Shown piece after piece: positions 56,778 through 57,360 of a stretch of DNA of 64,000 bases. Each line of letters begins with the position of its first letter. Position 1 is the first letter of the stretch. Location: the NCBI GenBank assembly GCA_000165345.1, contig CM000436.1, positions 608,001 to 672,000 on the forward strand. Direction: 5' to 3'. The notes under the pieces are model-generated. The model saw only the letters and a list, made by a program, of their open reading frames with translations. It was not told the origin of the DNA and did no database searches. The translations under genes and the position numbers were made by a program.

Positions 56778-57360
56778 TTACATTGAGTTTTTTGAATTAA
56801 TCCAAGCAGTATCTACAAGACCTATAAGCATAAAAAAAATTGTCCAAAAATGATTAATTCTACTTTTTTATTTTATATAGAAATCATACCTGTTTGTGGA
56901 TTAGTTCCTAGAGGCCTCCTAAATAACAAAATGTGGGGCTCAGGCCTAAAGTTGATTTGTTTTTAATTGTTTAAATCTTGTAGCTAACTTACTTATGTAC
57001 CAAGTAATGTTGCCATCCCCTAGATTGCTGTACTCCAAGCATTCTCCACTCCTGCTCAGAAAGTAGTCCAGTAGGTTTTGATTGGATTATTGCTTGAGCC
57101 TTTTTCGAAATCTGGAACAAATCAAGTAAAAAAAATCTTAATATTTCGAAAGACGAATCAAAATCAATCCACTTAATGAAATAGAATATTCGCAGTTTCG
57201 TCCTAGCTTCGTACCTAACTTACAGCTTTTGGTAAAGTTACATGCCTACAATTGTCCTTAATTTTCTTCCTTCAATTAGACGCTTCCTTACTTACCTGTA
57301 CTCATATACATCATCCTCGTATTTTGATGAATATAAGATATCATCAGGATAGTTCACCAT
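56778..57360 (-). CDS. CKS1: Cyclin-dependent kinase regulatory subunit CKS1 (suc1/Cks), four exons on the minus strand join(57296..57360,56993..57136,56890..56945,56778..56821)
   Basis: Spliced product: [22 protein letters not shown]...[38 protein letters not shown].... Compare human CKS1 IYYSDKYDDEEFEYR...[36 protein letters not shown]. Donors are GTAAGT, GTAAGT and GTATGA (minus strand) and all exons are phase-consistent. An E2F-like CCTGGCGCCAAAA lies ~90 bp upstream of the ATG. Confidence 0.65.

Follow-up and report, generated by a model that had tools for sequence, protein, structure and literature searches.

Comparative evidence for a five-exon CKS (Cks1/suc1) gene with a 22-nt micro-exon on chromosome 8 of Cryptosporidium parvum

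The window, i.e., the whole stretch of 64,000 nt of DNA that was analysed, has a G+C content of 31.4% and includes two long open reading frames (ORFs) of the minus strand separated by a gap of 1043 bp (56567-57609). The ORF located upstream of this gap (57610-61452, minus strand) encodes an Mtr4-like helicase of the Mtr4/Ski2 type of 1280 aa, with DEAD, MTR4 beta-barrel and DSHCT domains, and the one located downstream (55016-56566, minus strand) encodes an uncharacterised protein of 516 aa. No ORF of at least 60 aa was found within the gap, the longest one being 43 aa. According to sequence comparisons, the interval 56778-57360 of the minus strand very probably corresponds to the single-copy CKS (Cks1/suc1/CksHs) gene of C. 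parvum chromosome 8, locus cpbgf_8002510, composed of five exons and encoding a protein of 101 aa; the 43-aa ORF contains most of its exon 3. A first-pass annotation of the stretch had placed a spliced gene of the CKS/suc1 family exactly there, and the landmarks it relied on could all be read in the sequence, namely the ATG at 57360, the donors GTAAGT (57295), GTAAGT (56992) and GTATGA (56889), the last two acceptors and the TAA at 56780-56778. It had also presented the gene as hidden in an apparently empty gap. While the lack of any ORF of at least 60 aa agrees with this description, the gene is annotated publicly (cpbgf_8002510, XP_001388430.1) and is hidden from a bacterial-style ORF list only.

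Over the 6 kb surrounding the gene, the sequence is 99.95% identical to contig CM109968.1 of the C. parvum assembly GCA_048859185.1, with three mismatches, none of which falls inside the CKS gene. For C. hominis and C. tyzzeri, the identity over this stretch is about 97%. The best protein matches of the deduced product are Cryptosporidium CKS proteins, and the order helicase, CKS, 475-516-aa ORF is kept in the five species compared (C. parvum, C. hominis, C. tyzzeri, C. xiaoi and C. andersoni). By this shared neighbourhood, together with a product identical to the C. hominis protein OLQ19317.1, the gene is an orthologue of the annotated Cryptosporidium CKS. The identical 101-aa protein of C. 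hominis is also deposited as PPA64692.1, both records bearing the name “Cyclin-dependent kinase regulatory subunit”. Besides, the C. hominis record JIBN01000122.1 (L006), from strain UKH1 (PMC5070614), gives a gene span of 583 nt that matches 56778-57360, with the same five-exon model and the same flanking genes. The CKS gene is already known in the sense that it is catalogued in public Cryptosporidium genomes.

On the minus strand, exon 1 (57296-57360, 65 nt) starts with the ATG at 57360 and encodes 21 residues followed by the AG of Arg22. It is separated by intron 1 (57246-57295, 50 nt, GTAAGT...TGTAG, phase 2) from a micro-exon of 22 nt (exon 2, 57224-57245), which lies in the context tgtag / GCATGTAACTTTACCAAAAGCT / gtaagt, completes Arg22 and encodes HVTLPKA, part of the EYRHV.LP strand present throughout CKS proteins. 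Intron 2 (57112-57223, 112 nt, GTAAGT...TTGTTCCAG, phase 0) comes next and encloses two further candidate acceptors, the one chosen by the first-pass annotation (AG at 57137-57138) and the one used in a 121-aa model of the BGF annotation (exon start at 57171). Exon 3 (56993-57111, 119 nt), preceded by the acceptor ttgttccag / ATTTCG, encodes 39 residues and the AA of Lys69. Then, intron 3 (56946-56992, 47 nt, GTAAGT...CTTTAG, phase 2), whose length is 47/46/55/59 nt across species with GT..AG kept, leads to exon 4 (56890-56945, 56 nt), which completes Lys69, adds 18 residues and the first base of Gly88, and carries both the beta-hinge HxPEPH and the ILLFRRP core. Finally, intron 4 (56822-56889, 68 nt, GTATGA...CTTATAG, phase 1; 68/66/80/106 nt across species) is followed by exon 5 (56778-56821, 44 nt including the TAA at 56778-56780), which completes Gly88 and encodes 13 more residues. 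The coding sequence amounts to 306 nt (65+22+119+56+44), i.e., 101 aa, where the first-pass annotation had announced a product of 103 aa although its own model gives 102 aa. The exons have a G+C content of 38% versus 27% for the introns, in agreement with the contrast published for the whole genome (32% in exons versus 22% in introns; PMC4637869).

The exon structure is established by comparative genomics, from which we infer the splicing that takes place in C. parvum. The locus was aligned among C. parvum, C. hominis, C. tyzzeri, C. xiaoi and C. andersoni and measured segment by segment. The first four exons have equal lengths (65/22/119/56 nt) in all five species, and the four GT..AG pairs are found at homologous positions in each of them. 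The four introns measure 50/83/69, 112/95/95, 47/55/59 and 68/80/106 nt in the C. parvum group, C. xiaoi and C. andersoni, respectively. Identity to C. xiaoi and C. andersoni reaches 61-86% in exons versus 29-42% in introns. This is illustrated by exon 1 (83-86%) and exon 4 (80-82%) on the one hand, and by intron 1 (29-36%, with GT..AG kept) on the other hand. Counted by codon position, the differences between the coding sequences of C. parvum and C. xiaoi are 11/2/53, with saturated synonymous sites and a dN of 0.06, and those between C. parvum and C. andersoni are 15/7/47, with a dN of 0.11 and a dN/dS of about 0.05. Against C. hominis and C. tyzzeri, they are 0/0/4 in both cases, all synonymous, so that no amino acid is changed. 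The micro-exon follows the same pattern: in C. xiaoi it reads ACATGTTACACTACCCAAATCT, with 6 of the 22 bases changed, and still encodes HVTLPKS, and in C. andersoni it reads ACATGTAACATTACCAAGGGCT and encodes HVTLPRA. His23 and Val24, which the micro-exon encodes, show no variation among 29 aligned homologues. When the 101-aa product was looked up exactly, the matches were genome records only and no transcript contig was returned.

The five-exon product belongs to the CKS family, as indicated by a score of 118.7 bits (E = 1.2e-34) against the Pfam profile PF01111, for a cut-off of 27, with positions 1-67 of the 68 profile positions covered. Sequence matches in the PDB include human CKS1 (1buh_B, E = 1.2e-26), CKS2, S. 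cerevisiae Cks1 and S. pombe suc1, so that the resemblance to the CKS core reported by the first-pass annotation is borne out. In human CKS1, the cationic pocket for phosphate is formed by what we take from the structural literature to be Lys11, Arg20, Ser51, Trp54 and Arg71. Alignment with 1buh_B gives Lys13, Arg22, Ser59, Trp62 and Arg79 as their counterparts. Among the 29 homologues, in which 30 positions are invariant, Arg22, Ser59, Trp62 and Arg79 are invariant and Lys13 is nearly so. The beta-hinge is also found, as H68-K-P-E-P-H73 followed by ILLFRRP, and spans the junction between exons 3 and 4. An AlphaFold2 model built on the homologue alignment reached a mean pLDDT of 91.2 and a pTM of 0.80. 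In a Foldseek search with this model, the top match was 4y72_C, human CKS2 bound in the CDK1-cyclin B complex, with a TM of 0.90 on the target and an rmsd of 1.6 A, and all 16 significant matches were CKS proteins. The predicted model displays the CKS fold, i.e., a four-stranded antiparallel beta-sheet and two helices.

With human CKS1B and CKS2, the Cryptosporidium protein shares about 60% identity over the domain, the same fold, the pocket residues, the HxPEPH hinge and the ILLFRRP core. It differs by Lys69 in the hinge, where the human protein has Glu61, by a 15-aa C-terminal tail with a predicted short helix, and by a loop/helix after strand 2 that is 6 aa longer than in human CKS1 (16 residues instead of DIAKLVPKTH). 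An insertion of 7 aa had been counted at this place in the first-pass model. Loop lengths in other alveolate CKS proteins span this 6-aa excess, which is therefore no splicing artefact.

These observations bear directly on the reading in which the CKS-like segments would belong to a decaying pseudogene, or would owe their resemblance to chance, the gap being non-coding. The absence of a long ORF in the gap fits such a reading, as does the scarcity of introns in this genome, where they occur in about 10.8% of genes (PMC4637869). However, the family profile is matched at E = 1e-34 over its full length, the frame is intact over five exons in five species, substitutions are strongly biased toward third positions with a dN/dS of about 0.05, and the functional residues of CKS proteins are all conserved. 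The probability left to a pseudogene or to chance is negligible, this reading being already refuted by the conservation pattern of the sequences.

A spliced CKS gene being retained, the first question is how exon 1 is connected to the rest of the domain. The first-pass annotation proposed four exons, in which exon 1 is followed immediately by an exon that begins at 57136 (acceptor ...AATATTAAG). The corresponding product of 102 aa, with 13 other residues after EY, is in frame and, when submitted to the CKS-family profile as that annotation had suggested, passes the Pfam threshold with 99.9 bits. It nevertheless scores 19 bits below the five-exon product. In this model, FFLLDLFQ takes the place of the HV.LP strand, and with it are lost His23 and Val24, invariant in the 29 homologues. 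Moreover, its 25 extra bases, counted from the real start of exon 3 at 57111, are unalignable in C. xiaoi and C. andersoni, where the region has another length and contains stop codons, and the model skips a perfectly conserved exon of 22 nt with conserved AG and GTAAGT flanks. The four-exon structure is, on this evidence, highly improbable. The same annotation had warned that its acceptor was weak and that a micro-exon was possible, and this caution proved justified, the missing element being the 22-nt exon at 57224-57245.

Once the micro-exon is included, the position of the acceptor of intron 2 has to be considered. An acceptor at 57102 (aaaaag / GCT), which would give an in-frame product of 98 aa, was rejected because the stretch for ISK/ITK shows the conservation of a coding sequence and all five species keep the cag / AT acceptor. 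The model annotated in C. parvum BGF (WRK34005.1, 121 aa) keeps the micro-exon and starts exon 3 at 57171, which adds 60 nt, i.e., 20 residues in the loop after strand 2, either in the main product or in an isoform. This extension is in frame and free of stop codons in C. parvum, C. hominis and C. tyzzeri, its 20 residues fall in a loop of variable length family-wide, and the reference that annotates it is a curated, telomere-to-telomere one. As the BGF annotation concerns a species with much expression data (PMC11655656), the 57171 acceptor may see at least occasional use. However, the 121-aa model lowers the Pfam score to 105.7 bits, and the region aligned to the extension measures 43 nt in C. 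xiaoi and 53 nt in C. andersoni, with stop codons. Five changes, three of them non-synonymous, separate C. parvum from C. hominis over the 60 nt of the extension, compared to four changes, all synonymous, over the 294 nt of coding sequence compared. By our own estimate, a 20-codon stretch has a chance of about 20% of being open at this base composition, and a T-rich tract stands before the 57111 acceptor, not before that at 57171. We consider the 121-aa model unlikely and treat the 60-nt extension as intron; the 57171 acceptor may have a minor use.

At the other end of the gene, the retention of intron 4 would yield a protein of 92 aa ending in ...NPQTGMISI*, comparable to the C-termini of KAL5366986.1, WKS79505.1, CUV07800.1 and C. 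canis KAJ1615083.1. This read-through C-terminus is shared by several annotations, and the Pfam score stays the same (119.1 bits), since the junction lies beyond the end of the CKS domain. Nonetheless, the read-through tails are completely unlike between close species, with GMISI in C. parvum, GMIFYTK in C. hominis following a 1-nt indel, and GMTYEIVS in C. canis; intron 4 is therefore non-coding. By comparison, exon 5 (G-L/Q-V-D-x-x-W-x-N) is conserved from C. parvum to C. andersoni together with its GT and AG, its counterpart being GLVDASWLNMKN in C. xiaoi and GQVDPTWVNS... in C. andersoni, and it extends the TG-x-V-D/E pattern, also encountered in other alveolate CKS proteins. The exact 92-aa product of intron retention was absent from the protein collection searched. 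Retention of intron 4 is very unlikely, and the five-exon structure is kept in what follows.

Outside Cryptosporidium, the phase-0 intron position after codon 29, i.e., that of intron 2, is shared by the chromerid Vitrella, for which a transcript contig supports the introns. The CKS gene of Gregarina has one intron, located four codons from the position of intron 2, that of Ichthyophthirius is intronless, and the Amoebophrya CKS model could not be reproduced with GT/GC-AG introns, so that Vitrella is the only one of these four with a common intron position. A further scenario can be formulated, in which intron 2 of C. parvum, C. hominis and C. tyzzeri would have two functional acceptors (57111 and 57171) and, separately, the micro-exon would be bounded by an ancient intron. 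We regard this scenario as unlikely. If the dual acceptors were real, a canonical protein of 101 aa would coexist with a clade-specific isoform of 121 aa, whose hydrophobic 20-residue loop insert could alter the choice of partners. If the second part were true, the intron bounding the micro-exon, at a position common to Vitrella, would have survived the massive loss of introns in Cryptosporidium.

The comparison with public records indicates that the gene has often been modeled incorrectly. The four C. parvum records retrieved (86, 91, 103 and 121 aa) look mis-spliced when set against the conserved five-exon structure, which is found in none of them. Part of the CKS domain is present in each. 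XP_001388430.1 (86 aa, partial) starts inside intron 2, lacks exons 1 and 2 and reads through intron 2; WKS79505.1 (91 aa) likewise lacks exons 1 and 2 and reads through intron 2; KAL5366986.1 (103 aa) has PEPHILLFR deleted and reads through intron 4; and WRK34005.1 (cpbgf_8002510, 121 aa), designated “hypothetical protein” in C. parvum BGF, retains 60 nt of intron 2. The 22-nt micro-exon or its neighbours are missed or distorted in the retrieved C. parvum models, the telomere-to-telomere BGF reference included. Defects were also seen in C. hominis CUV07800.1 (92 aa), in C. tyzzeri TRY49949.1 (78 aa), where the frame is lost after LVH, and in the C. xiaoi model (108 aa), which misses the micro-exon. 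The PF01111 scores of the retrieved models of the C. parvum group range from 70.5 to 105.7 bits versus 118.7 bits for the five-exon product. The 105-aa models of C. andersoni, C. muris and C. serpentis have the same architecture as the five-exon gene.

Such errors probably result from the packing of four introns into 583 bp, which places CKS at the intron-rich end for the C. parvum genome, where the genes with introns have a mean of 2.6 exons (PMC4637869). In a published comparison, orthology pipelines placed the locus cpbgf_8002510 among putative species-specific genes, and the annotation of C. meleagridis fuses it with cpbgf_8002500 (PMC11655656); both situations are explained by the instability of the CKS gene models. 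In the open-access literature, no paper was found that names a cgd8_25xx identifier for the CKS gene or that deals specifically with Cryptosporidium CKS. The biological weight of the five-exon model is small and its value mainly curatorial: it offers a correction for the C. parvum records and a basis for tagging or knock-down constructs in work on the cell cycle of C. parvum.

CKS proteins are universal accessory subunits of eukaryotic cyclin-dependent kinases (CDKs). By analogy with the characterized members of the family, the Cryptosporidium product should bind a parasite CDK and dock phosphorylated threonines. Folded as a predicted four-stranded beta-sheet with two helices, it would contact the C-lobe of a CDK through the beta-hinge/strand 4 region (HYLVHKPEPH), while the pocket formed by Lys13, Arg22, Ser59, Trp62 and Arg79 would dock threonine sites already phosphorylated on the substrates. 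Such docking could promote multisite phosphorylation during the division cycles of the parasite. The nearest functional analogue with experimental data in apicomplexans, likened here to the Cryptosporidium protein by description, is CDKrs of P. berghei (PBANKA_0824400), a Cks1/CksHs2-related protein found in a complex with CRK5 and the cyclin SOC2, on which DNA replication and mitosis depend during male gametogony (PMC7308089).

Upstream of the gene, an E2F-like site, TTTTGGCGCC (GGCGCCAAAA on the plus strand), is located at 57449-57458 on the minus strand, 89-98 nt upstream of the ATG. The first-pass annotation had noticed it about 90 bp upstream and had related it to a cell-cycle gene. The site is present: the consensus TTTSSCGC is found as TTTGGCGC at 57450-57457 (minus strand), 90-97 nt upstream of the ATG, and the overlapping TTTGGCGCCA at 57448-57457 (minus strand), 88-97 nt upstream of it, matches motif 3 of C. 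parvum described by Oberstaller, DTTGSCGCCH (PMC3734150). The site of the CKS promoter can also be written TTTGGCGCC.

The link with the cell cycle did not stand, the motif being generic in C. parvum. The 64-kb window contains 15 TTTSSCGC sites versus 1.58 expected, and 13 of the 15 lie outside ORFs of at least 150 aa. The site occurs in C. hominis and C. tyzzeri, where the flanks are 94-98% identical anyway, and no consensus E2F site was found within 450 nt upstream of CKS in C. xiaoi or C. andersoni. E2F-like motifs are the commonest promoter motif of C. parvum: 163 of 200 expression clusters (2,379 genes) are enriched in them, and these follow no particular expression pattern (PMC3734150). 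From these counts and the absence in the two distant species, the site was set aside as a non-specific indicator of the cell cycle, a conserved and cell-cycle-specific E2F site not being found at CKS. In open chromatin, too, the E2F-like motif ranks as the most prominent one (bioRxiv 10.1101/2025.01.17.633476). The E2F-like site upstream of CKS is best described as a generic Cryptosporidium promoter mark and is a plausible element of the CKS promoter.

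The intron positions of the CKS gene were examined in Vitrella brassicaformis by comparing a genomic locus (L008:1501-2154) with a transcript contig (L009:61-345), and this comparison revealed four introns. One of them, a phase-0 intron located after codon 29 (LPHA/V), shares both its position and its phase with intron 2 of the C. parvum gene (LPKA/I). The last Vitrella intron lies one codon off C. parvum intron 3. Because of the match at intron 2, at least one boundary of the C. parvum CKS micro-exon may be ancient, as judged from the sequence comparison. The annotated 100-aa CKS protein of Amoebophrya sp. 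A120 could not be rebuilt from its genomic interval (L010:501-1221) using GT/GC..AG introns, which reflects either non-canonical splice sites or an unusual gene model.

In C. parvum, the CKS gene is preceded on the minus strand by a 1280-aa Mtr4/Ski2-type RNA helicase (57610-61452) carrying DEAD, MTR4 beta-barrel and DSHCT domains, and followed by a 516-aa ORF (55016-56566) with no Pfam family on record, so that all three genes lie on the same strand. Counterparts of the 516-aa ORF keep this position across the Cryptosporidium genus, with lengths of 475-516 aa. A second E2F-like element, TTTGGCGGGAAA, was found at 56673-56684 on the plus strand, as an exact match to Oberstaller motif 4 (TTTGGCGGGAAV). 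The element falls downstream of the CKS stop codon (56778) and ahead of the start codon (ATG at 56566) of the 516-aa ORF, which suggests that this ORF is driven by a separate promoter and does not form one gene with CKS, contrary to the fused model annotated for C. meleagridis.

At the scale of the whole window, the E2F consensus TTTSSCGC occurred 15 times, compared to 1.58 sites expected from shuffles. Long ORFs cover 67% of the bases of this gene-dense window, and 13 of the 15 sites were located outside ORFs of at least 150 aa. The consensus marks the majority of the intergenic regions.

Besides, this small locus (56778-57360) has received at least eight differing CKS protein models in Cryptosporidium annotations (retrieved loci L001-L006), of 78, 86, 91, 92, 95, 103, 108 and 121 aa, apart from the consistent models of 101 and 105 aa. 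The C. parvum gene was entered in one paper as a putative species-specific singleton (PMC11655656).
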